A stretch of DNA of 64,000 nt from positions 1,172,029 to 1,236,028 of the forward strand of contig CAVVUC010000002.1 in NCBI GenBank assembly GCA_963751395.1, given 5' to 3'. This stretch comes from an uncultured Verrucomicrobiae bacterium. Its GTDB lineage: Bacteria > Verrucomicrobiota > Verrucomicrobiia > Chthoniobacterales > Chthoniobacteraceae. Positions 17,157 to 62,172 of the stretch are shown piece by piece. Each line of letters opens with the position of its first letter. Position 1 is the stretch's first letter. The position numbers and the translations under genes were made by a program. The notes under the pieces were generated by a model. The model saw only the letters and a program-made list of their open reading frames with translations. It ran no database searches and was not told the DNA's origin.

Positions 17157-18107
17157 ATGAAATTCCCTCCGCTCGATTTTTCCAAAATCCGCACCTACGC
17201 GCTTGAGGAACGCGCCAACAAAGTCGCTGTTGCGGACTTCGCGCGGGTCCACGAAAGCGGTGGAAGCTTTGCGGACTTCCTCGAAAAACTCCCGAACTTC
17301 CTCGCCGCCGCTGATTTCAAGAAAGTCGTGGCCGCCATCGTGGCCGCCGTGCGCACGGACCGACCGGTCCTCCTGATGATGGGAGCGCATCCGATCAAGT
17401 GCGGGCTGAATCCGCTCATCGTCGATCTGATGAGACGCCGGGTGATCTCCGCAGTCGCGTTCAATGGCGCGGGAGCGATCCACGATTTCGAAACGGCCTT
17501 TCAGGGCGAGACGAGCGAGGACGTTCAACGCGGTTTGGACGACGGTTCATTCGGCATGGTCGATGAAACACCGCGCTTGATGAACGCGGCCATTGAGGTT
17601 GGCGTGCGGCGTGGCTTGGGTGCCGGCGAGGCGCTCGGGCGCGCGATTGCGGACGGCGCATTTGTGAACCGCCACTTGAGCATCCTGAACACCGGCATCG
17701 AAATGAACGCGCCCGTCACCGTCCATATCGCAATCGGCACGGACATCATTCATCAGCATCCAACCACGAGCGGCGCGGCGCTCGGCGAGGCGTCGTATCG
17801 CGACTTCCAGCGATTCGCCTCGGTCGTCGCGCAACTCGAAGGCGGCGTCGTGTTGAACATCGGCAGCGCCGTCATCATGCCCGAGGTTTTTTTGAAAGCT
17901 CTCACCATCGCGCGCAACCTCGGCAACACGGTAAGCAACTTCACCACCGCGAACTTCGACATGATCCGGCACTATCGCCCATCCGAAAACGTCGTTCGCC
18001 GCCCGACACATCTCGGCGGCCAGGGTTTCTATATCGTCGGCCACCATGAGTTGATGATTCCGCTGCTATTCGCTGCGGTCGTCGAGGAGTTAAGAATTAA
18101 GAGTTAG
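17157..18107 (+). CDS. deoxyhypusine synthase-like (DS family) protein
   Basis: 316 aa. Segments PVLLMMGAHPIKCGLNPLIVDLMRRRVISAVAFNGAGAIHDFE and VLNIGSAVIMPE parallel the DHS segments VFLGYTSNLISSGIRE...VDVLVTTAGGVEEDL and ILGGGVVKHH. This rests on remembered DHS motifs only. The C-terminal codons ELRIKS* are encoded by the left arm of a heptamer hairpin. Confidence 0.4.
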   Translation: MKFPPLDFSKIRTYALEERANKVAVADFARVHESGGSFADFLEKLPNFLAAADFKKVVAAIVAAVRTDRPVLLMMGAHPIKCGLNPLIVDLMRRRVISAVAFNGAGAIHDFETAFQGETSEDVQRGLDDGSFGMVDETPRLMNAAIEVGVRRGLGAGEALGRAIADGAFVNRHLSILNTGIEMNAPVTVHIAIGTDIIHQHPTTSGAALGEASYRDFQRFASVVAQLEGGVVLNIGSAVIMPEVFLKALTIARNLGNTVSNFTTANFDMIRHYRPSENVVRRPTHLGGQGFYIVGHHELMIPLLFAAVVEELRIKS

Positions 18108-18172
18108 AAGTTAAAAAACGTCATCGACTCAAAACTGCTGTCCTTAATTCTTAACTCATAAGTCTTAACTTT
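18087..18172. repeat. heptamer-tandem inverted-repeat hairpin (AAGAATT/AAGAGTT/AGAAGTT versus AATTCTT/AACTCAT/AAGTCTT)
   Basis: gagttaagaattaagagttagaagttaa, a 27-nt spacer, then ccttaattcttaactcataagtcttaactt. The left arm encodes the last 6 codons plus the stop of the DHS-like gene, and the right arm ends 10 nt before the rfaE ATG. Confidence 0.9.
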
Positions 18173-21504: not shown

Positions 21505-21591
21505 TGATTTCCGATTTTAGATTTTTGATTTTCGACCTGCGAAAAGCAGCGCGCACTTGAAATCCAAAATCCAAAATCCAAAATCCAAAAT
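21505..21591. repeat. heptamer-tandem inverted-repeat hairpin (left arm GATTTCC/GATTTTA/GATTTTT/GATTTTC; right arm GAAATCC + AAAATCC x3)
   Basis: Seen directly: tgatttccgattttagatttttgattttcga, a 23-nt spacer, then gaaatccaaaatccaaaatccaaaatccaaaat. It exactly fills the rpmF-stop to plsX-ATG gap. Confidence 0.9.
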
Positions 21592-22635
21592 ATGAAGATT
21601 GCGCTCGACGCCATGGGCGGCGATTTCGCGCCGAAGAACATCATCGGCGGTGCCGTCCTCGCCCTCGCGGAGTATTCCGAGATCACGAAGCTGTTCCTTG
21701 TTGGCGATTCGGCTCGAATTGAAGCCGAACTCAAGACCAACAACTTCACCGATCCGCGCATCGAGATCGTCCATGCCTCGCAGGTCGTGGAGATGACCGA
21801 CGGGGCGGTGGAGTCGGTGCGGAAGAAAAAAGACTCGTCCGTGAGCCGGGCGGTCGATCTCGTGAAGAATGGCGACGCCGATGCGATCGTCAGCGCCGGT
21901 CACACGGGGGCGGCAGTCGCGGCGACCACGATCAAGCTGCGCACGCTGCCGGGCGTGGAGCGGCCGGGCATAGCGTCCGTGATCCCGACGGAAAGCAACG
22001 TCTTCGTCCTCATCGACGCCGGGGCCAACATCGACGCCCGACCGATCCATCTCCTGCAATACGCGGTCATGGGGTCGGTCTATTCCAAGCACGTCCTCGG
22101 CTACCAGAATCCCGCGATCGGTTTGATGTCGATCGGCGACGAGGACGTGAAGGGGAGTGATTTCACCAAGGAGGTCTTCAAGCTCCTCAAGGACAGCAAG
22201 CTGAACTTCCGCGGCAACATCGAGGGGCACGACCTTTTTGAAAACCCGGTCGAGGTGGTGTTGTGCGATGGTTTTATCGGCAATGTCGTTTTGAAAACCT
22301 GCGAAGCGATCGCCCATGCGATTTTCCAGTGGCTCAAGCACGAGATGTATAAGACGCCGTTGCGCAAACTCGGGGGGATGCTGGCGAAAGGCGCATTCAA
22401 GACGATTTACAAAAAGACGAACTACGAGGAATACGGGGGCAGCCCGCTGCTCGGGGTGAACGGCATCTGCATCATCGCGCACGGATCGAGCACACCGCTC
22501 GCGATCAAGAACGCGATCCGCGTGGCCGCCGAATCGATCTCTCACCAACTCAATCCTCACATCATCGAGGAAATCCAACGCTACCATGAAACGACCACAG
22601 CCCCGCTTCCCGCGCCTCTTCAAACCCAAGCGTAG
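21592..22635 (+). CDS. plsX: phosphate acyltransferase PlsX
   Basis: MKIALDAMGGDFAPKNIIGGAVLAL...GNIEGHD...GSPLLGVNGICIIAHGSS are PlsX motifs. Confidence 0.9.
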   Translation: MKIALDAMGGDFAPKNIIGGAVLALAEYSEITKLFLVGDSARIEAELKTNNFTDPRIEIVHASQVVEMTDGAVESVRKKKDSSVSRAVDLVKNGDADAIVSAGHTGAAVAATTIKLRTLPGVERPGIASVIPTESNVFVLIDAGANIDARPIHLLQYAVMGSVYSKHVLGYQNPAIGLMSIGDEDVKGSDFTKEVFKLLKDSKLNFRGNIEGHDLFENPVEVVLCDGFIGNVVLKTCEAIAHAIFQWLKHEMYKTPLRKLGGMLAKGAFKTIYKKTNYEEYGGSPLLGVNGICIIAHGSSTPLAIKNAIRVAAESISHQLNPHIIEEIQRYHETTTAPLPAPLQTQA

Positions 22636-27882: not shown

Positions 27883-29117
27883 TGGGATTTCAGATTGCAG
27901 ATTGGAAAGCCTGGCATCGCTTCGCTCGTTGCAGCAGATTTCAGATTGCCCGGGTGCGCACGAAGCGAGGATTTCTTCAATCTTCAATCTTCAATCTTCA
28001 ATCTGTATTGGCCGTCCTCCTTCTTTCCGCGTGCCAGGAGCCGGCGCCCCTGCCCGTCGATCCGAACGCGCCGAAGAAACTCGTCGTCCCTGACAAAGGC
28101 GCCTACACCGGAGCCTACATCGATTTCGGCGATACCGAGGACGACGTCACGCTCGAGGCGATCGAGGACTTCGAGACGCTTGTCGGCAAGCACCAGGCGA
28201 TCGTCGCATCGTCGAGTTACTGGGGCGAGCAGACGTTTCCCGCCGCCAACGTCAGCCTCATCTGGCGGCACGGCTCGATTCCTCTGGTCTTCTGGTCGCC
28301 GTGGGACAAGCCCTACGTCGAGAACGAGGACGACGATGCTCCCGTGTGGTATGCCGCCGCCAACAAGTATTCGCTTTGGAACATCATCGACGGGAAGTGC
28401 GACGACTACATCGACAAATGGGCCGATGGCGCGAAGCAGTTCGGCCAGCCGATGTTCGTTTCATTCTGCAATGAAATGAACGGCATCTGGTTTCCGTGGT
28501 CCGGCATTTTTTACGGAGCCGATGCCGATGTGCCCGGCGAGAAGGACAAAAAAATGGGGCCGGAGACGTTCAAGCGAGCGTGGCGGCATGTGGTCGATCG
28601 GGTTCGCGCTCGCGGCGCCACGAACATCCTCTGGGTTTTCCACCTCATGAACTACTCCATCCCGCAGGACAACTGGAACTACGCGAAGCAGTATTATCCG
28701 GGGCCGGATTACGTGGACTGGCTTGGGCTCAGCGTTTACGGCATGCAGGTTCGCGAGGAACACTGGTCGGAGTTCTCGCAAATCATGGTCGATGGCAAGC
28801 TCACCGGCGGCCTGCTCGACTGGCCTTACGAGGAGTTGTGCCGGATGGATTCAACAAAACCGATCATGCTCGCGGAATGGGGTTGCGGCGAGTTTCCGGA
28901 GTTCGGCGACAAGGCGCGATGGATTCGGGAGGGGTTCGAGGAAATGAGAAAGCGTCCGCGCATCAAGGCCGCGGTGTTCTGGCACGAGCGCTGGCAGAAC
29001 GAAGAGGAGCACTACAGCAACCTTCGCGTGAACTCGTCGCCGGAGTCGCTCGATGCTTACCGCAAAGGCGTGTCCGATCCATTCTGGCTCGACAAGCCGA
29101 TCCTCAAGCCGCGCTAA
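27882..29117 (+). CDS. GH26-like glycoside hydrolase lipoprotein (start uncertain)
   Basis: Lipobox-type signal VLAVLLLSAC. The catalytic region is FVSFCNEMNGIWFPWSG (GH26/GH5 NE-acid motif) and IMLAEWG (nucleophile). A start at ATG 27882 would overlap the upstream stop (TGATG) and translate the heptamer hairpin. In-frame TTG at 28008 is an alternative. Confidence 0.6.
   Translation: MGFQIADWKAWHRFARCSRFQIARVRTKRGFLQSSIFNLQSVLAVLLLSACQEPAPLPVDPNAPKKLVVPDKGAYTGAYIDFGDTEDDVTLEAIEDFETLVGKHQAIVASSSYWGEQTFPAANVSLIWRHGSIPLVFWSPWDKPYVENEDDDAPVWYAAANKYSLWNIIDGKCDDYIDKWADGAKQFGQPMFVSFCNEMNGIWFPWSGIFYGADADVPGEKDKKMGPETFKRAWRHVVDRVRARGATNILWVFHLMNYSIPQDNWNYAKQYYPGPDYVDWLGLSVYGMQVREEHWSEFSQIMVDGKLTGGLLDWPYEELCRMDSTKPIMLAEWGCGEFPEFGDKARWIREGFEEMRKRPRIKAAVFWHERWQNEEEHYSNLRVNSSPESLDAYRKGVSDPFWLDKPILKPR
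27883..28006. repeat. heptamer-tandem inverted-repeat element (CAGATTG units; CAATCTT x4 on the opposite arm) with a nested dyad
   Basis: gggatttcagattgcagattgg...gatttcagattgcc...gatttcttcaatcttcaatcttcaatcttcaatctg. Confidence 0.9.
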
Positions 29118-30300: not shown

Positions 30301-30380
30301 GGAATGTGAATGGTGATTGGTGAATCGTGAATGGCGGAGGTGCGATACTCATTCACGCATTCACCAATCACCATTTACGT
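30301..30380. repeat. heptamer-tandem inverted-repeat hairpin (GAATGTG/AATGGTG/ATTGGTG/AATCGTG versus CATTCAC/CAATCAC/CATTTAC)
   Basis: ggaatgtgaatggtgattggtgaatcgtgaatgg, a 13-nt spacer, then ctcattcacgcattcaccaatcaccatttacg. It sits between the GT start and the acetyltransferase stop. Confidence 0.9.
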
Positions 30381-30965
30381 CTTCAACTCCTTTACAATCA
30401 CCGCAGGGTTGCCGGCGACGATGACGTTTTCCGGGACGCTCTTCGACACGACCGATCCGGCGGCGATGACGGAGTTCTCGCCGATGGTCACGCCTTTCAA
30501 AATCACCGCGTTCATGCCGATCCAGACGTTGTCACCGATTCGAACAGGTTTGGCGGATATCGGCGGGCGTTCCGGGCGCGGCTTGCTGTAGGGTGAGATT
30601 GCCATCGCGTCGATGCGGCGCAAGGCCGGTTCAAGCGGATGAAAATCCGAATCGGCGATGCCGACATTCCACGAGATCAAACAATACGAGCCGATCTCGA
30701 TCGACTCCTCGGCCATGATTAACGCGCCGTTCAGCAGCGTATAATCGCCGACCTTGCAGTGACCGTTCACGCCGATTGAAAACGAGACACCGGCGTAGCA
30801 GGAGACGCATTTGCCCAGTTCAACGGCGGGGTCTTTCTTGCTCTTGATGAAGCGAAAAATTTGGGTGGTTTCGCAATAAAGCCCCTCGTCCCATACGACG
30901 TTTGGCGGGATCGGATGGTGGTACCAATCGTCGTCGATGCGGCGGTCTGCGTTGATGTTGCTCAT
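30375..30965 (-). CDS. hexapeptide-repeat (LbH) acyl/acetyltransferase
   Basis: The C-terminal half has left-handed beta-helix hexapeptide repeats ([31 protein letters not shown]). Its last codons overlap the right arm of a heptamer hairpin. Confidence 0.75.
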
Positions 30966-33040
30966 GTCTTTGATGCGGTTCCGCCGGTCCTGGATTCGCC
31001 GGCTCTGGCTGCGTATTGATCTGCGACGGCTTGAAGCGCGTCCGTATTCACGCCTTCCGTGGCGATGCCGATGTTGCTCTTCTCGCTCACGAGCAGGCTG
31101 AGAAGCTGGCCGACCAGGCTGCTGTTCATGCCTTCGCCATCGCCTCCTCCGCCGCTTACAAACAGGCGTTCCGGCACCAGCGGCTGGCTGCTCTTCGAGA
31201 ATTGCTCCGCGACCAGATTCAACGCGAACAGCCTTGGGTCGCGATAAGCGTTCACCTTCTGCAATGTCACCGCCGCCTCGGACAGGCCGATCTGCGCGAT
31301 GCGCGAGGCCTCGCCTTTGCCGATCAGCTCCTTCGATGTCGCTTCGCCTTGCGCGAGCGCGATCTGCCGCTTCGCGAGCCGCTCGGATTCGGCGAGCTGC
31401 GCTTCGCCGCGGTTGGCGGCCACTTCAATGTCGATCTTCGACTGCGTCAGCTCTGTCTGTTTCGCCGCAGCCGCTTCGGCCTGCTTGAACTGGCGCAGGT
31501 TTTCGGCGGCCTCCTGCTGTTTCACATAGGTCGCCTTCTGTTCGTCGGCGAGCCGGCGCTGGCGCAGTTGATCGAACAGCCGCTCGATCGGGTCCTCCTT
31601 GCCGGCCTCGATTTTCGACTCCGGCCGTCCGATCAGCACGGCGACGCAGTTGATGTCGTATTCCTTGAAACGCGCGCCGAGGGCGACCGTCGCCTGCCGC
31701 TGGATTTCCTCACGCTTGGTGAGCAGGTCGAGCATGCTGCTGTTCTGCGCCACGTCCCGGAAATAGGCCGTGAGAATCGGATCGAGCGTCTGGTTGATGA
31801 GCCGCTTCACGTCGCCGAACCGCTGAATCACGCTGGGTGCCTTTTGGTAATCGATATGCACCACCAGCGAGAGCGGCAGCGTCGGTTCGTACGCATCGGC
31901 GGTGATGAGCGCGATGCTTTCGAGGTTCTCGTCGTATTTGTGTTCCTCGACTTCGTTCGTGATCCAGCGCAGGACGAAGTTGATTGTCGGCACGTATTCG
32001 ATCTTCACCGCGTATGGATTGAGCGCGTATTTGCCCGGCGCGAGCGCGTGGCGCCACACGCCGCGCTGGCCCTTCTCGACTTGCTCGCCGTAGCGAAACG
32101 CATCGCCGCTTACGTCGCTGCCTGTCACGCCGTGATAGGAAACGACAACGCCGACGTAGCCGATCGGCACCATGGTTTTCATCTGAATTTCGATCGTCGC
32201 GAACCATCGGTTGATGAAAAACGTGCCGTCGGTGAGCACCTGCAATTGCTTGCCGCGCTTGCCGCCAAGCGCGAGAAACGCCTCGGGGTCCTGGAAGCAC
32301 TCGTGGTCGGGTTGGCCGCTGCCCGGCTTCACTTCGGGTGCGATGATTTCGCCCGAGGCGATCATCGGGCCGTCCTGCACGCTGACAACGCCGATGGTAT
32401 CCGTCGGCAGCAGATAACCGGGGTCGTTGCCCTCCGCGACTGCTGCTCCGGCGGTCCCGATGATCACAGGCTGGAAGCCGCGCATCATGTCGAGCTGCGT
32501 TTTCCATTGCACATATTTCGTCTCCTCGTCGTCGCGGATCGGTCCCGAAAAAACGCGGTCCTCGCTGATGACGACGAACAGCGCGAGGTTGATCGCGTAA
32601 ACGCCTTCGCGAAGAATGGCGCGTTGTCTGCCGCGATGGCCTTTGTTGCTCAGGAACGCCTGTGCGTCCTGGAAGTGGTTGCTCTCGATCGTCGTGCCCA
32701 GCGTTTGCGTCGCCGGCAGCGGCTCGCCGTCGCGCGCATAGACGTAGCCGATCTTGCCCTGGCCGACTGTTACGAGCGGCTGTTTGTGAACGCGGTATTG
32801 CCACGAATAGAGGCCGAAGTGAATGCCGCCGCGCAGAATGTTCGTCTGGAAACCGGCCTCGCCGCTGCGGGCGATGATCTGGCCTTGCTTGAGCGACCCC
32901 TTGGGGCTCCAGAGTTTTTCGATCACGCCGATCTGCGTGTGCGGGATGTAAACGATTCCGAGCAGGCGTGGGAGGAAGAACAAAACGCCGAGGCCCAGCG
33001 CCAGAAGCAGGAGAGTGAAGACGGAAGGCAATGGGATCAT
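30962..33040 (-). CDS. SPFH/band-7 flotillin-like protein
   Basis: 692 aa with an N-terminal TM and an SPFH-like region. It has a long Ala/Gln/Glu-rich coiled coil ([51 protein letters not shown]) typical of flotillin/YqiK proteins. Confidence 0.5.
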
Positions 33041-33128
33041 GGAGCGGTGGAGTTTGTTGTTGCTGGTGAGCGTTAATGGCTACTCAGATGCGACCGAGTT
33101 TGGAAGCGCGAAAAGAGGGGAGGCGATT

Positions 33129-33322
33129 GGCGAAATCCGAATGACGAATGACGAAGCCCGAAGAACTGACGGAAGCGCTGGTTTCGCCCTCACCTCAATC
33201 CTCTCCCAGCGGGAGAGGATCAAGGTGAGGGTCGGCGATGCAACCCGACGCCACGGCCTTTCTTCGTTCATTCCGACTTCGGGCTTGTTTCGTCATTCGG
33301 ATTTCGTCATTCGTCATTCGCC
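33129..33322. repeat. compound element: outer heptamer-tandem arms (CGAATGA/TCATTCG family) flanking a 48-bp GC-rich palindrome (ccctcacctcaatcctctcccagcgggagaggatcaaggtgaggg)
   Basis: Left arm gaaatccgaatgacgaatgacgaagcccgaag and right arm cttcgggcttgtttcgtcattcggatttcgtcattcgtcattcg. The central perfect dyad is ctctcccagcgggagagg. The element ends at the hemL ATG. Confidence 0.9.
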
Positions 33323-33325
33323 ATC

Positions 33326-34615
33326 ATGACCCGAACAAAATCCGCCGAAGCTTTTCAAACTGCACGGCGCTACATTCCCGGCGGCGTCAACTCGCCGGTG
33401 CGCGCTTTTCGCGGCGTCGGCGGCGAGCCGTTCTTCGTGAACCGCGCGCGCGGCTCGCGCATTTGGGACATCGACGGCAATGAATACATCGACTACGTCG
33501 GCACGTGGGGGCCTGCCATTCTCGGCCACGCCCCGGAAGTCGTGATCGACGCGATCAACGCCGCCGCGCGGAACGGCGTGAGCTTCGGCATTCCGAATCC
33601 GTTCGAGATCGAGATGGCGAAGACGATCTGCGCGTGGGTGCCGTCGATTGAAAAGGTTCGCATGGTCAACAGCGGCACCGAAGCGACGATGTCCTGCATC
33701 CGACTCGCTCGGGGATTCACGAAGCGCGACAAGATCGTGAAGTTCGAGGGCTGCTATCACGGCCACGTCGATTCGCTTCTGGTCAAGGCCGGCAGCGGCG
33801 CGCTCACGCACGGCGAGCCTGACAGCGCGGGCGTTCCGAAGGCGTTCGCCGATTTGACGGTCACGCTGCCGTTCAACGACCCCGAGGCGCTGAAGGCGGT
33901 GTTCGAGCGCGATGGCAATGAAATCGCCGGTGTCATCCTCGAACCGATTCCGGCAAATGCAGGGTTGTATTTTCCGCGCGTCGGCTACTTGGAACTGCTG
34001 CGGAAGCTTTGCTCGGACCACGCTGCGATTTTGATTTTTGATGAAGTGATGACCGGCTTCCGGGTCGCGCGCGGCGGGGCGCAGGAGTTGTTCGGCATCA
34101 AGCCCGACCTCACGGCGCTCGGCAAGGTGATCGGCGGTGGTCTGCCGGTCGGCGCGTTCGGAGGGCGGGGGGACATCATGGATTGCCTTTCGCCGGACGG
34201 CCCGGTGTATCAGGCCGGAACGCTTTCGGGAAATCCGCTGGCGATGGCCGCGGGCCTCGCGCAGTTGCGGGAACTCGAACGCCGCGACGGCTGGAAACGG
34301 CTGGAAAAACTCGGCGCGATTCTCGAAGAGGCGATGCGCGACGTTCTCCACAAGCACAGCGGCAGGCTCGCTTTTCACCGCGTCGGTTCGATGTTCTGCC
34401 TGTTCTTCACCGGCGGCGAAGTGCGCGACCTCGCCTCGGCGCAAACCAGCGACCGTAAAGCGTTCGCCGCGTTTTTCCACGCCTGTCTCGACGACGGCGT
34501 TTACTTCGCCCCGTCGCAATTCGAAACCGGCTTCCTCTCGCTTGCCCACACCGACGACGACCTTGCCCGCACGGCGGAAGTGGTCGTGCGCTCCCTGGGT
34601 GCTGTGATGGGATAG
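33326..34615 (+). CDS. hemL: glutamate-1-semialdehyde 2,1-aminomutase
   Basis: 429 aa. ARRYIPGGVNSPVRAF...GTWGPAILGHA...DEVMTGFR and the PLP lysine region match class III aminotransferase HemL. Confidence 0.9.
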   Translation: MTRTKSAEAFQTARRYIPGGVNSPVRAFRGVGGEPFFVNRARGSRIWDIDGNEYIDYVGTWGPAILGHAPEVVIDAINAAARNGVSFGIPNPFEIEMAKTICAWVPSIEKVRMVNSGTEATMSCIRLARGFTKRDKIVKFEGCYHGHVDSLLVKAGSGALTHGEPDSAGVPKAFADLTVTLPFNDPEALKAVFERDGNEIAGVILEPIPANAGLYFPRVGYLELLRKLCSDHAAILIFDEVMTGFRVARGGAQELFGIKPDLTALGKVIGGGLPVGAFGGRGDIMDCLSPDGPVYQAGTLSGNPLAMAAGLAQLRELERRDGWKRLEKLGAILEEAMRDVLHKHSGRLAFHRVGSMFCLFFTGGEVRDLASAQTSDRKAFAAFFHACLDDGVYFAPSQFETGFLSLAHTDDDLARTAEVVVRSLGAVMG

Positions 34616-34643: not shown

Positions 34644-35541
34644 CTACTTTCCCGCCCGCGGGTCGAGCGCGTCGCGCAGCGCGTCGCCGAGGAAGTTGAG
34701 CGCGAGCAGGGTTCCGGACATCACGAGCGCCGGGTAAACAAGCAGCCACCAGTTGCTGCGCACGGGATTGATCACCTGCGCGCCGTCGCTCATCAACGAG
34801 CCCCAGCTTGCCAGCGGGGCCTGAATCCCGAGGCCGAGGAAGCTCAGGAACGACTTCGTCGAGAATCACGGCGGGAATGGTCAGCGTGAGATAGATGACC
34901 ACGATGCCGACGAGGTTCGGCAGCAAATGGCGCGTGATGATTTTCGCATTGCTCTGGCCGAGGGCGCGCGCGGCGGCGACGAACTGCTGTGACGAAAGCG
35001 CGAGCACCTGTCCGCGCACAATGCGCGCCATCGTGAGCCATTCGATGAGGCCGAGCGACAAGACGAGGATGACGATGCGCGAGTAGCCGACGAGCCAGTC
35101 GAGCCGCAAGGCGAGCAGCCAGTTTTTCACGGTGCTGTCGAAGGTGTTGATGAAAATGAGGATGATGATGAGGCGCGGCACGGCGTAGAGCACCTCGACG
35201 ATACGCATCATGAGCGCGTCCCATTTGCCGCCGGCGTATCCGGCGACGAGCCCGTAGCTGGTGCCAACGACAAGGCTGATGAACGCGCCGGAAAGCCCGA
35301 CGAGAAGGGAGATGCGGCCGCCGGTGAGCACGCGGTGAAGCACGTCGCGCCCGTTCAGGTCCGTGCCGAACGGATGCGCGAGGGACGGCGGCGCGAACTG
35401 GTTCGGCGAGACCTCGCCGTAGCTCGCGGGCATCACGAGCGGACCGATCACCGCCGCGACGGCGACGACGGCGACGACGGCGAGCGAGATTCTCGCGACC
35501 CGTCTTTTCAAAAAGCGCTGCCAGGCTCCGGGTTCAGTCAT
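34644..35541 (-). CDS. ABC transporter permease, DppC/OppC-like (apparent frameshift near the C-terminus)
   Basis: N-terminal region with TM1 and a BPD_transp_1 domain (ORF 34501..35541). The expected C-terminal helices (SFLGLGIQAPLASWGSLMSDGAQ...) are in another frame ending at a stop at 34644-34646, with the shift near 34860-34880. Confidence 0.7.
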
Positions 35542-36454
35542 AGAGCTTGATGCGCCGGTCGAGGAACGTGTAGGCGATGTCCACGGCGAGGTTGAGCACG
35601 ACGAGCAGCGCGCAATAGACGATGACCACGCCGCCGAGCAGAAAGCCGTCGCGGTTTTGAATCGAGTTCACGAAAAATCCGCCCGCGCCCGGGATGTTGA
35701 AAACCGTCTCGATGATGACCGAGCCGGTGAGGAGGTTCGCGGCGAGGGGGCCGAGAAAAGAGACGACGGGCAGGATCGCGACTTTGAGCGCGTGCTTGTA
35801 GATGATGCGCGATTCGGCGACGCCTTTCGCGCGCGCGGTGCGGACGAAATCGGAGCCGAGCACTTCGAGCATGCTCGTGCGCATCAGCCGCGCGATGTAG
35901 GCGACGTAGGGCGCTGCCAGGGTGAGCGACGGGAGCACGAGATCGCTCCAGCTTCCCCAGCCGCCGACGGGGAGCCAGCGCAGCTTCAATCCGAACAGGA
36001 GGATGAGCAGCGGCCCGGTGACAAAAGTCGGCGTCGAAATCGCCAGCAGCGCGACAAACATCGCCCCGGCGTCGGCCGGCGTGTCGCTGCGCACCGCCGC
36101 CCAGCTTCCAAGCCACACGCCGGCCGTCGTGGCGATGAGGAACGCGGCAAGGCCGAGCGTCGCGGAGACCGGCAGCGCCTGCGCCAGCAGTTCGTTCACG
36201 GAGCGGTTGCGATACTTCGTCGAGAGCCGCAGGTCGCCGCGTAGCAGGTCGCAAATGTAGTCGAAGTATTGCCGCGAGAGCGGGCCGTCGAGTTTGTACT
36301 TCGCAAGAAGCTGCTTCTCGATCTGGGGCGGTATTTTTCGTTCGCGATCGAACGGTCCGCCGGGCGCGAGCCGGATGAGGAAAAACGTGAACGACACCAC
36401 GCAGAACAGCACGAGCAGCATGGACGCGAAGCGGCGGAGGATGAAGGCGATCAT
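35534..36454 (-). CDS. ABC transporter permease, DppB/OppB-like
   Basis: 306 aa. MIAFILRRFASMLLVLFCVVSFTFFLIRLAPGGP is the typical DppB N-terminus, with a BPD_transp_1 fold. Confidence 0.8.
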   Translation of the reverse strand: MIAFILRRFASMLLVLFCVVSFTFFLIRLAPGGPFDRERKIPPQIEKQLLAKYKLDGPLSRQYFDYICDLLRGDLRLSTKYRNRSVNELLAQALPVSATLGLAAFLIATTAGVWLGSWAAVRSDTPADAGAMFVALLAISTPTFVTGPLLILLFGLKLRWLPVGGWGSWSDLVLPSLTLAAPYVAYIARLMRTSMLEVLGSDFVRTARAKGVAESRIIYKHALKVAILPVVSFLGPLAANLLTGSVIIETVFNIPGAGGFFVNSIQNRDGFLLGGVVIVYCALLVVLNLAVDIAYTFLDRRIKLYD

Positions 36455-36460
36455 CGGGAA

Positions 36461-36555
36461 AATGACGAATGAATGTCGAAGCCGGAATGTTCAATGACGA
36501 ATGCGCAAACGAACGGGCACATTCGGATTTCGTCATTCGTCATTCGGATTTCGTC
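36461..36555. repeat. heptamer-tandem inverted-repeat hairpin (AATGACG/CGTCATT family) with an inner dyad ccgaatgt...acattcgg
   Basis: aatgacgaatgaatgtcgaag...atttcgtcattcgtcattcggatttcgtcattt. The right arm encodes the C-terminus (EMTKSE) of the DNA MTase, and the left arm abuts the dppB-like start. Confidence 0.9.
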
Positions 36556-37373
36556 ATTTCAAAAAGTTCATCCGACAATCGCTTGCGCGCCTCCTTCAAA
36601 TACTCCTCGTCGATCTCGAAGCCGATGAACCTGCCAACGCCGCATTCCTTTGCGGCGAGCGCGGAGTGGCCGATGCCGAGAAACGGATCGAGCATCACGA
36701 GTCCGGCGCGCTGGCCGTGGAGCTTGATGCATTGCGTGGCGAGCGCGACCGGGAACGTCGCCGGATGCGGGCGCTCCCCGGCGCGGCTCTTGATCGTCTT
36801 GTAGGGAATGAACCAGTTGTTGCCGCGGCAGCGCCGGTCGCGCCCTTCGGTGTGGCCCCAGCGCGCGATGTTGCTCTTGTCCGAGTATGCGACGCCGATG
36901 GCGAGGCGGTCGAGTGTCACGAAGCCACTTTTCGTGAGATGGAAAAGATATTCGTGGCAGTCGGTGATGTAGCGCGGCGAGTTGATCGGCTTGAAATGCC
37001 CCGCCGAAATGTCCAGGCCGTCGCGAGTCGTCACGGTGATCGACTTGATCCAGTGGATCGTGTTTTGCAGCACGAAGAGCGGCCGGAGTTGCAGTACCAG
37101 CTCGTGCGGCAGCATCGGGTTCGCGGGCGCCGCGCCGACGTTGAGAAAAAACGAGCCGTCCGGTTTGAGCACGCGCTTGATCTCGGAGGCCCATTGCCCG
37201 CACCAGTGGAGATATTCCTCGCGCGCCGCGTCGTCGGAATACTTCGAATACGCGATGCCGAGATTGTAAGGCGGCGAGGTCACGACGAGATCGACCGACT
37301 CGCTCGCGAGCGCGCGCATCCCGGCGAGGCAATCGCCGTGATGCAGTTCGAATTCCGTGTTGGTTTCGGGCAT
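36540..37373 (-). CDS. DNA methyltransferase, beta-class amino-MTase (N4-C or N6-A; SPPY motif)
   Basis: From the internal Met: MPETNTEFELHHGDCLAGMRALASESVDLVVTSPPYN (D21-class MTase motif IV). The SAM-binding motif LDPFLGIGHSALAAKECGVGRFIGFEIDEEY is C-terminal, as in the beta permutation. The C-terminal codons EMTKSE* are encoded by a heptamer hairpin arm. Confidence 0.8.
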   Translation of the reverse strand: MPETNTEFELHHGDCLAGMRALASESVDLVVTSPPYNLGIAYSKYSDDAAREEYLHWCGQWASEIKRVLKPDGSFFLNVGAAPANPMLPHELVLQLRPLFVLQNTIHWIKSITVTTRDGLDISAGHFKPINSPRYITDCHEYLFHLTKSGFVTLDRLAIGVAYSDKSNIARWGHTEGRDRRCRGNNWFIPYKTIKSRAGERPHPATFPVALATQCIKLHGQRAGLVMLDPFLGIGHSALAAKECGVGRFIGFEIDEEYLKEARKRLSDELFEMTKSE

Positions 37374-37551
37374 GGCGGAATTGATTAAAGCGAAACGCGG
37401 GGCGGAACCAGCCGAATGTTCGTTTACGCAAAAACCGGCCCGCCGCAACCTGAATTGCTCGCCCGCCGGAAGCGTGCCGCACATTAGCCAGTGGCGCTGG
37501 CCTCCGAACCGCCATCCCAACCCACATCCGCCCCGGCAGGGCGCGGGAATG

Positions 37552-45800: not shown

Positions 45801-45871
45801 AATGTTGAGGGGTTGGGAAGGTGAGTAGTTGAGGATTTTTCTCAACGGCTCAACAACTCAACCCCTCAACG
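45801..45871. repeat. heptamer-tandem inverted-repeat hairpin (GTTGAGG family)
   Basis: aatgttgaggggttgggaaggtgagtagttgagga ttttt ctcaacggctcaacaactcaacccctcaacg, between the PduO-type gene start and the rpoC stop. Confidence 0.9.
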
Positions 45872-54526: not shown

Positions 54527-54530
54527 CTGT

Positions 54531-54627
54531 AAATTATGAATTATGAATTATGAGTTATGAATGAAATCCGCCGCGGCATCGCCGCGCAATTTTCACTTCA
54601 TTCTTCATTTTTCATCCTTCATCCTTT
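54531..54627. repeat. heptamer-tandem inverted-repeat hairpin (ATGAATT/ATGAGTT versus TTCATTC/TTCATCC)
   Basis: aattatgaattatgaattatgagttatgaatgaaat, a GC-rich spacer, then tttcacttcattcttcatttttcatccttcatcc. It lies immediately upstream of the rplL start codon. Confidence 0.9.
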
Positions 54628-54749: not shown

Positions 54750-54831
54750 CTTACTCCTGCTCCTGATCTTGTTCCTTATCTTCCCGATGTGTGAAGGAGA
54801 TAAAGAGCAAGAGCAGGAGCAGGAGGTAAGA
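54750..54831. repeat. imperfect ~35-bp-stem hairpin built from CTCCTG / GAGCAG hexamer repeats
   Basis: cttactcctgctcctgatcttgttccttatcttc, a 10-nt loop, then gaaggagataaagagcaagagcaggagcaggaggtaag. It lies in the unusually long (310 nt) rplJ-rplL spacer. Confidence 0.8.
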
Positions 54832-60067: not shown

Positions 60068-60143
60068 TGGAGCCTTTGTTGCAGCTTCGGCGTGAAGCGT
60101 CAATTTCCGAAGGCGGAACGCTGTGGAGCGGATGGATTTGGGT

Positions 60144-60296
60144 GGCACAGGCGTCCCGCCTGTTGGCGATGGCGTCCCCGCCGAAACGAGCTTTCAAAAA
60201 CGTGGATTCACAGTAAACGGTTCCGAAGTCAAACTCCGCCCTCGAAGAAAGTCCGCGATGGCGGGGACGCCATCGCCAACAGGCGGGACGCCTGTG
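60144..60296. repeat. MITE-like element: 38-bp near-perfect terminal inverted repeats (ggcacaggcgtcccgcctgttggcgatggcgtccccgcc) separated by ~76 bp
   Basis: The arms at 60144-60182 and 60259-60296 are reverse complements with 1 mismatch. Each arm contains an internal direct repeat ggcgtccc(c)gcc. Confidence 0.85.
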
Positions 60297-60307
60297 CTAC
60301 CCAAGCC

Positions 60308-61966: not shown

Positions 61967-62055
61967 GGAATTGGCGACGACACGAGGGGGAGGCTTTGAT
62001 AATGCAAGAAACGTCGATCAAGGCAAGATGCAGTCGGGGCATGGAGGCGAAAGTA

Positions 62056-62124
62056 GAAGGGATTTCCAAATCCCTTCATGCGTCGTCCGCGGTTCAGTTC
62101 CGAAGGGATTTGGAAATCCCTTTT
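62056..62124. promoter_or_regulatory. pair of 20-22 bp quasi-palindromic sites (gaagggatttCCaaatcccttc / gaagggatttGGaaatccctt) in the divergent GH16 / FAD-oxidoreductase intergenic region; candidate operator
   Basis: The two sites are seen directly 46 bp apart centre to centre, and each is the reverse complement of the other. A related ccaaatttgg dyad lies in the ftsK/manA divergent region (6530-6563). Confidence 0.4.
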
Positions 62125-62172
62125 ACAGATGGCACTTGGCGCGAAATCCCAAATATGCGTAGATAACTCTTG

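Follow-up and report, generated by a model that had tools for sequence, protein, structure and literature searches.

Small repeated sequences that can fold into hairpins between genes have been described from several bacterial groups, and they provide the frame for the element reported here: a nested inverted repeat in the spacer between a flotillin-like gene and hemL of an uncultured Verrucomicrobiae bacterium (contig CAVVUC010000002.1; "the window" is the whole stretch of 64,000 nucleotides that was analysed). Between cyanobacterial genes, hairpins are formed by the 7-bp STRR repeats, for which transcript stability and translational coupling have been proposed but no function is known (PMC2670836). 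In Beggiatoaceae, Cyanobacteria and Bacteroidetes, TAACTGA heptamers are arranged as direct repeats; among 170 sets a single one was inverted (MacGregor 2015, PMC4679880). The REP, BIME and REPIN group is based on REPs of 20-40 bp with stems of 8-9 bp or longer, fixed loops and a terminal GTAG or CGTC tag, and REP doublets show an orientation preference (PMC3733652).

A further family, BoxC (also PIT or TM_ECO), has 23 copies in Escherichia coli MG1655, which are always intergenic and frequently occur as inverted pairs (Holder et al. 2015, PMC4666352). According to the same paper the function of the neighbouring genes is unrelated to the presence of the motif, the element folds in vitro as an intrastrand triplex of the purine motif (circular dichroism and nuclear magnetic resonance), and it is linked to local genome instability. 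That BoxC/PIT acts neither as promoter nor as terminator in E. coli is stated there on the authority of its reference 41, and the earlier work on the motif (Bachellier, Hoyne/Maher) is given here as cited in PMC4666352.

Our results make it probable (roughly 70%) that two dispersed families of intergenic repeats, neither of them specific for any gene, form a mosaic at the hemL locus: a palindromic BoxC/PIT core and surrounding arms of degenerate heptamers. This reading is preferred because both modules occur independently across phyla, their nesting recurs elsewhere, and nothing ties the element to hemL. An earlier note, made from the letters of the sequence, had drawn attention to a compound hairpin upstream of hemL. 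Such a hairpin is real, since the sequence, a repeat finder and folds of both strands agree on it, and the modular assembly suggested in the note fits as a description: arms and dyad are independent repeat families. On the whole, however, the feature is more ordinary than was proposed and is no hemL regulator.

The element occupies positions 33122-33323, approximately 202 of the 285 bases of the spacer (33041-33325; Table 1). About 81 nt beside the start of the flotillin-like gene fall outside it, so the claim that it spans the whole intergenic region was too wide. On the other side it stops 3 nt before the hemL ATG at 33326, a start that is consistent with the N-termini of the orthologs, and here the note was right to let the structure end at the start codon. 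The flanking genes are also as it had them, with a flotillin-like gene and hemL in divergent orientation. Two open reading frames (ORFs) cross the element, one of 104 codons on the plus strand (33015-33329), which exits via the stop-free CGTCATT arm, and one of 63 codons on the minus strand (33080-33271). A gene caller might report them, but both are probably artefacts.

Judged by its sequence, the inner dyad represents the known BoxC/PIT motif in palindromic form, each strand having its own copy. The published consensus reads 5'-CCCTCNCCC N3-6 GGGNGAGGG N3 GGGNGAGGG-3' and has 24 defined positions (PMC4666352). On each strand the dyad agrees with 21 of these 24 positions, against no matches in 100 shuffles. 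The three mismatches per copy concern the outer base of each block, and the blocks of the window are therefore effectively 8 nt long (TCCTCTCCCAGCGGGAGAGGATCAAGGTGAGGG as the 8-nt-block variant of the core). The dyad had been described earlier as perfect and 48 bp long. It is indeed GC-rich, but its length is 45 bp and 19 of the 21 positions of its arms form Watson-Crick pairs; the remaining two (C33196/A33222 and A33197/C33221 on the plus strand) become G.U pairs in RNA of the minus strand. When folded alone it is very stable, with z = -8.5 (plus) and -8.9 (minus) for RNA and z = -7.7 for DNA, and by itself the dyad is plausible as a cruciform.

The motif is not bound to this locus. The variant GGGAGAGGATYAAGGTGAGGG, which has 8-nt blocks and ATYAA as second loop, is present at eight unrelated metagenome loci, so that the intergenic and gene-unspecific character of BoxC is found here as well. 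In 0.94 Mb of fetched DNA there are 11 hairpins of the form CCTCTCCC-loop-GGGAGAGG, representing the motif core (the one of the window included), where our own estimate of the expectation is about 0.1. Within the 64-kb window there is one BoxC copy. Of 5426 E. coli genomes, 5409 contain a match to a related copy from the planctomycete locus L106, which is not the dyad of the window. The likeness to BoxC/PIT thus concerns the three-block pattern as well as the intergenic, gene-unspecific and cross-phylum occurrence, and inverted "palindromic" forms belong to the published family too. Differences are found in the shorter blocks, in the host (a verrucomicrobium, also to judge by the relatives of its hemL protein) and in the embedding of the motif in heptamer arms. 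Furthermore, the inverted copies overlap here on one hairpin whereas those of E. coli lie tens of bases apart, and the triplex is known for the E. coli motif whereas the variant of the window is known from its sequence and a predicted Watson-Crick hairpin.

The outer arms consist of degenerate 7-nt units with a constant CGAA or TTCG core in inverted orientation, and the AATGACG-type heptamers that the note placed outside the dyad are thus present. They can pair in two alternative registers of 25 nt, each 92% complementary, and contain a perfect pair of 10-mers (AAGCCCGAAG/CTTCGGGCTT); the spacing between these imperfect arms is 113-126 nt. Purines prevail in the left arm, where TGA and ATG occur in each of the three frames; the right arm is pyrimidine-rich and has no stop codons. 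RNA structure prediction on both strands, which the note had put forward as a check, bears out the hairpin: region 33100-33340 folds at -119.9 kcal/mol on the plus and -114.2 kcal/mol on the minus strand (z = -7.4 and -7.3), and 0 of 200 shuffles were equally stable. The window has three copies of the sequence GAATGACGAATGACGAA, where 0.02 would be expected. The third copy sits in a second hairpin of the same family (Table 1), which folds weakly (z = -1.2 and -2.4) and is bordered by the stop of a minus-strand gene (36568-37527) and, on its other side, by the start of a minus-strand ABC permease gene (35534-36454).

The family of the arms extends far beyond this genome. Scanning one genome per bacterial species with TTCGTCATTCGTCATTCG yielded at least 120 bacterial stretches with the arm repeat; among the matches listed (at least 120), and going by record titles, about 49 belong to Verrucomicrobiota, 21 to Planctomycetota, 13 to Bacteroidota, 9 to Chloroflexota, 8 to Cyanobacteria and 5 to Acidobacteriota. 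Another 52 stretches are viral. The arms draw on a shared vocabulary of units (TGACGAA, ATCCGAA, GCCCGAA, GCACGAA) around the CGAA/TTCG core. L-numbers denote the sampled loci and contigs of database genomes, viruses and metagenomes. The 25-nt stretch CGAAATCCGAATGACGAATGACGAA of the left arm is identical in L040, L069, L105, L120 and L291, which represent Tepidisphaerales, Tepidisphaeraceae, verrucomicrobial and viral loci, and the hairpin of viral contig L243 agrees with the right arm at 97.5% over 40 nt. This AATGACG/CGTCATT hairpin (1506-1647) measures 140 nt and has a minus-strand gene on either side.

Several copies can occur on one contig (three each on L040 and L090), with the same irregular order of units around unrelated loops. 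Metagenome-assembled Tepidisphaerales sequence carries four copies (L040: 1821-1940, 6078-6193, 7427-7516; L105: 1641-1762) with arms of at least 50 nt; they have their irregular unit order in common, while the loops are unrelated and in three of the four measure 17-19 nt. Arm similarity is somewhat higher within a hairpin than between hairpins (47.2 against 40.2, p = 5e-4). The eight cyanobacterial loci that were sampled have single arrays and no hairpins. Single AATGACG arrays are also seen in the viral contigs L249 (2336-2361, 8708-8721, 9870-9898) and L253 (5276-5309, 7191-7231). These run in the sense of the phage genes and sit exactly on stop/start junctions, where they supply the TGA of one gene and lie at the ATG of the next or a few nucleotides from it. 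A literature search for the arm sequence as a literal string returned nothing relevant.

The nesting of a BoxC-type core within heptamer arms was searched for in metagenomes with the pattern AATGACGAA, 20-50 nt, CCTCTCCC-loop-GGGAGAGG, giving at least 120 stretches. This raw count is no evidence because most of the matches are chance neighbours, their lone AATGACGAA being part of a different repeat. Two-sided arms around a BoxC-type hairpin were present in nine matches from at least seven distinct soil-metagenome loci (among them L147, L156, L167, L168, L209 and L220/L224). The core of L147 is double and palindromic, like that of the hemL element. The source of most chance neighbours is a widespread palindromic repeat of its own, ...GATTGCTTCG(C/T)...CTCGCAATGACGAA, seen at L123, L131, L137, L152, L166 and other metagenome loci.

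A further property of the arms concerns their order. In 77 of 77 sampled hairpins of the family the AATGACG array precedes the CGTCATT array, an arrangement that reads alike on either strand and is distinct from the opposite one. Hairpins of other heptamers show a like bias, 11 of 13 in the sampled loci and six of seven in the window (arms read by ourselves). A search for reversed polarity in viral contigs gave two hairpins of the usual type and a small reversed one; the rule is therefore strong but not absolute. This reversed hairpin, the sole one seen (L299, 4020-4200), has the form CGTCATTCGTCATT, 14 nt, AATGACGAATGACG; it lies amid many irregularly spaced GAAATGACG sites, a region that looks more like a set of protein-binding sites.

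Concerning gene context of the 77 hairpins, 31 lie between co-directional genes, five between divergent and four between convergent genes, which is roughly what random intergenic placement would give on typical proportions. Stop codons are at a median distance of about 6 nt from the hairpins and start codons at about 28 nt. For the 31 hairpins between co-directional genes no difference in stability was found between sense and antisense RNA (15 against 16). The hemL element is atypical only in its site between divergent genes and in its core.

Compared with the heptamer families mentioned above, the element resembles STRR in anatomy: the units are 7-bp tandem repeats, intergenic, present in many copies and able to form hairpins from inverted arrays between genes. 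Both the unit sequence and the host set it apart from STRR. CCCCAGT, TTGGTCA and CAACAGT are the canonical units of STRR and their hosts are filamentous or heterocystous cyanobacteria, whereas the arms here are built of AATGACG/CGTCATT with a CGAA core, are found mainly in Verrucomicrobiota and Planctomycetota, and have a strict polarity. With the TAACTGA repeats they have in common the stop codons in all frames of one strand, the patchy spread across phyla that suggests transfer, and arrays that end a few nucleotides short of start codons lacking a Shine-Dalgarno sequence. The unit sequence is different, however, and in TAACTGA the strand with stops faces the start codon, whereas at hemL it is the stop-free CGTCATT strand that does so and the arrays are paired into hairpins. 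We therefore do not count the element as a member of the TAACTGA type.

Likeness to REP, BIME and REPIN sequences is seen in the small dispersed extragenic palindromes, the inverted doublets with their capacity for larger hairpins, the mosaics of motifs and the orientation preference. Here, however, the arms are tandem heptamers of variable length (35-47 nt) and a unit of tag, stem and loop is absent, which sets the element apart from REPs and REPINs. A CGTC-tagged REP was considered as well, as CGTC recurs in the arms, and was rejected on anatomy. A miniature inverted-repeat transposable element (MITE) does not fit either, given that copies with the same arms have unrelated loops and no flanking direct repeat was found by eye. 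In sequence, the element conforms to the definition of BoxC. The identity of irregular arms across phyla, the near-fixed polarity and the recurrent nesting around BoxC-type cores were not found in the literature searched.

The earlier note had offered a regulatory RNA or a DNA cruciform, controlling two divergent promoters, as a function. A dedicated cis-regulator of hemL, of the flotillin-like gene or of both is not supported, and we hold it to be very unlikely. The element abuts the hemL ATG, it folds very stably on both strands, and its inner dyad is fully paired on the flotillin-sense strand when G.U pairs are counted. Neither a sigma-70 promoter scan nor a relaxed TANNNT/-35 scan identified a promoter in the spacer, whichever strand was taken, so the start of transcription may lie inside the element or farther off. 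On the other hand, arms and dyad are absent upstream of hemL in relatives with 85, 82, 81 and 80% protein identity (in these, L294, L001, L298 and L295-297, the gene neighbourhoods differ too), and the same modules are found at unrelated genes, such as before the ABC permease gene, at gene ends and in phages. Searching Rfam with the window at gathering thresholds and with the spacer at E <=10 yielded only noise (microRNA and snoRNA models, 10-20 bits); on this result and the absence at the orthologs, a riboswitch or conserved hemL leader was rejected. The predicted accessibility of the hemL start codon is 0.49-0.52 for any assumed transcription start, whether or not the left arm is transcribed. 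The long and imperfect spacing of the outer arms makes extrusion of the whole element as a cruciform unlikely. As a separate observation, three metagenome contigs that carry the hemL protein P0004 (L295, L296, L297) end 160-175 nt upstream of hemL in the same sequence although they were assembled independently, which suggests a repeat that breaks assemblies.

Two other explanations were considered. The element might be a selected bidirectional insulator that shields the divergent units from read-through and antisense transcription. In this case RNA from either strand would consist of a purine-rich arm, a loop and a pyrimidine-rich arm; closure of the hairpin would coincide with a weak hybrid of pyrimidine RNA, favouring pausing, termination or processing by RNase III, and the TGA in all frames of the entering arm would stop stray ribosomes. 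Such a role would suit the phyla involved, which are poor in canonical terminators, and it agrees with the polarity of the family and the like bias in unrelated heptamers (the reversed hairpin of L299 excepted), with the closeness of the hairpins to gene ends, and with the phage arrays that lie in gene sense on stop/start junctions. We nevertheless consider it unlikely. A U-tract is lacking, no terminator-like site was called in 33041-33325 and both flanks are gene starts, so that a terminator at hemL would serve neither gene and an intrinsic terminator was rejected as a candidate. Convergent genes are not enriched (four against five divergent), a stability bias for the sense strand is missing, and BoxC/PIT is reported, at second hand, to be without terminator or promoter activity in E. 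coli (PMC4666352). Slightly less credible to us is a non-autonomous mobile element like a MITE or REPIN, in which arms and core would have been inserted as a whole by a transposase acting on hairpins. Its multi-copy and dispersed occurrence, the irregular arms common to sites within and between genomes and viral contigs, and a polarity conserved as descent would give (REP doublets are likewise orientation-biased; PMC3733652) all speak for it. Yet the loops differ wholly between copies with the same arms, arm length and unit number vary, direct repeats flanking 33122/33323 are absent by eye, and REPs with a CGTC or GTAG tag differ from these arms in their fixed loops and stems of 8-9 bp. Moreover, many different heptamers make like hairpins in one window, which a single mobile family cannot explain.

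Least probable of all, and close to negligible in our opinion, is that the duplex arrays are the working form and the 7-bp units serve as operator-like heptads for a protein. The omega repressor is an example of a protein that binds WATCACW heptads cooperatively in direct and inverted arrays. The 7-bp period, the constant CGAA/TTCG core with variable flanks, the fixed convergent orientation and the many spaced GAAATGACG sites of viral L299 would be in line with this; against it stand the lack of a candidate protein, the like behaviour of many unrelated heptamers in one genome, and the distant phyla and thousands of contexts, which are hard to fit to one regulator.

The mosaic of two repeat families accordingly remains our preferred reading, but several points weigh against it. 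The polarity of all 77 hairpins, together with the like bias in other heptamers, is a hint of selection or of some directional process, for which a neutral mosaic has no explanation. An enrichment of BoxC cores inside heptamer hairpins beyond joint occupancy of intergenic DNA is not established, and the gene contexts come from a heuristic ORF picker rather than from a gene caller. No mechanism of spread is demonstrated here. A target-site duplication at 33122/33323 was not seen by eye, and a transposase was not searched for in the window; the unrelated loops of copies with the same arms are unlike a MITE. Finally, the source genome was covered over the 64-kb window, and the copy number of either module per genome lies beyond that range.

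If the mosaic reading holds, the heptamer arrays would lengthen and shorten by replication slippage, as has been proposed for heptanucleotide repeats, the commonest long simple repeats of bacteria (Mrazek 2007, to the extent summarised in PMC4679880). Arms may be copied between sites and between genomes, phages included. Quasipalindrome template switching, known from Ripley and the Lovett laboratory, corrects and extends imperfect inverted repeats around a hairpin; it is a mechanism and not a sequence family, and by analogy it could be a route for keeping arms matched. Switching across a stable central hairpin would maintain and extend the symmetry, and a hairpin with the high stability of the BoxC dyad could in this way become the centre of a longer palindrome. 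A transcript that crosses the locus on either strand would fold as a hairpin of about 200 nt, which would act as a generic barrier or processing substrate rather than as a signal-responsive switch. Most likely at least the CGUCAUU arm forms part of the hemL leader.

The hemL element is one instance of a heptamer-hairpin habit of this genome, because the window contains 16 period-7 arrays (2.3 in shuffles; both arms of the hemL element are among them) and six additional heptamer-armed hairpins with other units. Five hairpins of this kind have the units AGTTAAG, GATTTTC/AAAATCC, CAGATTG, GTGAATG and ATGAATT. Coordinates are given in Table 1; the hairpin at 21505-21596 is the sole one of the window with the pyrimidine-rich arm first.

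Table 1. Coordinates of the nested element upstream of hemL, its parts, the flanking genes and other heptamer-armed hairpins in the window.
Feature	Position	Strand	Remarks
Left outer arm	33122-33163 (heptamers also read from 33128)		TGGCGAA ATCCGAA TGACGAA TGACGAA GCCCGAAG; constant CGAA core
Left linker	33164-33186		Weak pairing with 33256-33276 in the minimum-free-energy fold
Inner dyad	33187-33231		21-nt arms 33187-33207 and 33211-33231, 3-nt loop AGC
BoxC/PIT/TM-type motif	33199-33231	+	TCCTCTCCC-AGC-GGGAGAGGA-TCA-AGGTGAGGG
BoxC/PIT/TM-type motif, second copy	33187-33219	-	Shares the central hairpin with the + copy ("palindromic TM" configuration)
Right linker	33232-33276		Small predicted secondary hairpin, then degenerate TTCG units
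Right outer arm	33277-33323		CTTCGGGCTT GT TTCGTCA TTCGGAT TTCGTCA TTCGTCA TTCGCCA
hemL, glutamate-1-semialdehyde aminomutase	33326-34615	+	Aminotran_3 domain; near database relatives carry that name; flank, outside the element
SPFH/Band_7 flotillin-like gene	30962-33040	-	Band_7/SPFH domain; divergent from hemL; flank, outside the element
Second AATGACG-family hairpin	36455-36560		Exact 27-mer CATTCGGATTTCGTCATTCGTCATTCG common with the hemL element
Heptamer hairpins with other units	18085-18164, 21505-21596, 27883-28009, 30303-30378, 54527-54627		At gene junctions

Other repeats were observed in the window as well. Regions 45804-45870 (based on CTCAAC, period of about 8) and 54754-54825 (CTCCTG hexamers) form very stable hairpins with low-complexity arms and z = -9.3 and -9.1. 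An inverted repeat at 60138-60304, with non-simple arms of 58 nt that are 88% complementary and a spacer of 51 nt, may be a MITE or what is left of the end of an insertion sequence. At 62053-62126 a GTAG-tagged REP doublet is found, in which GTAGAAGGGATTTCCAAATCCCTTC is followed 24 nt further by an inverted copy with one mismatch; it folds at -44.8 kcal/mol (z = -7.9) and has the appearance of a REPIN from the GTAG superfamily, which has been reported in Verrucomicrobia.

For annotation the consequence is that the structure should be labelled as repeat DNA and not as a hemL leader or a small-RNA gene. A bolder view, which we regard as rather unlikely, is that heptamer-armed palindromes form an undescribed class across phyla, polar in that either strand has the purine-rich arm with its stop and start codons at the 5' side, that works as bidirectional insulators or RNase III sites, with BoxC-type cores nucleating the arms. 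If this were true, it would be an insulator class commonest in Verrucomicrobiota and Planctomycetota, carried by phages, in bacteria without canonical terminators. In general, if the polarity is functional, the elements could mark transcript boundaries in phyla about whose terminators little is known; a polarity due to descent would make them a new case of small repeat DNA crossing phyla.

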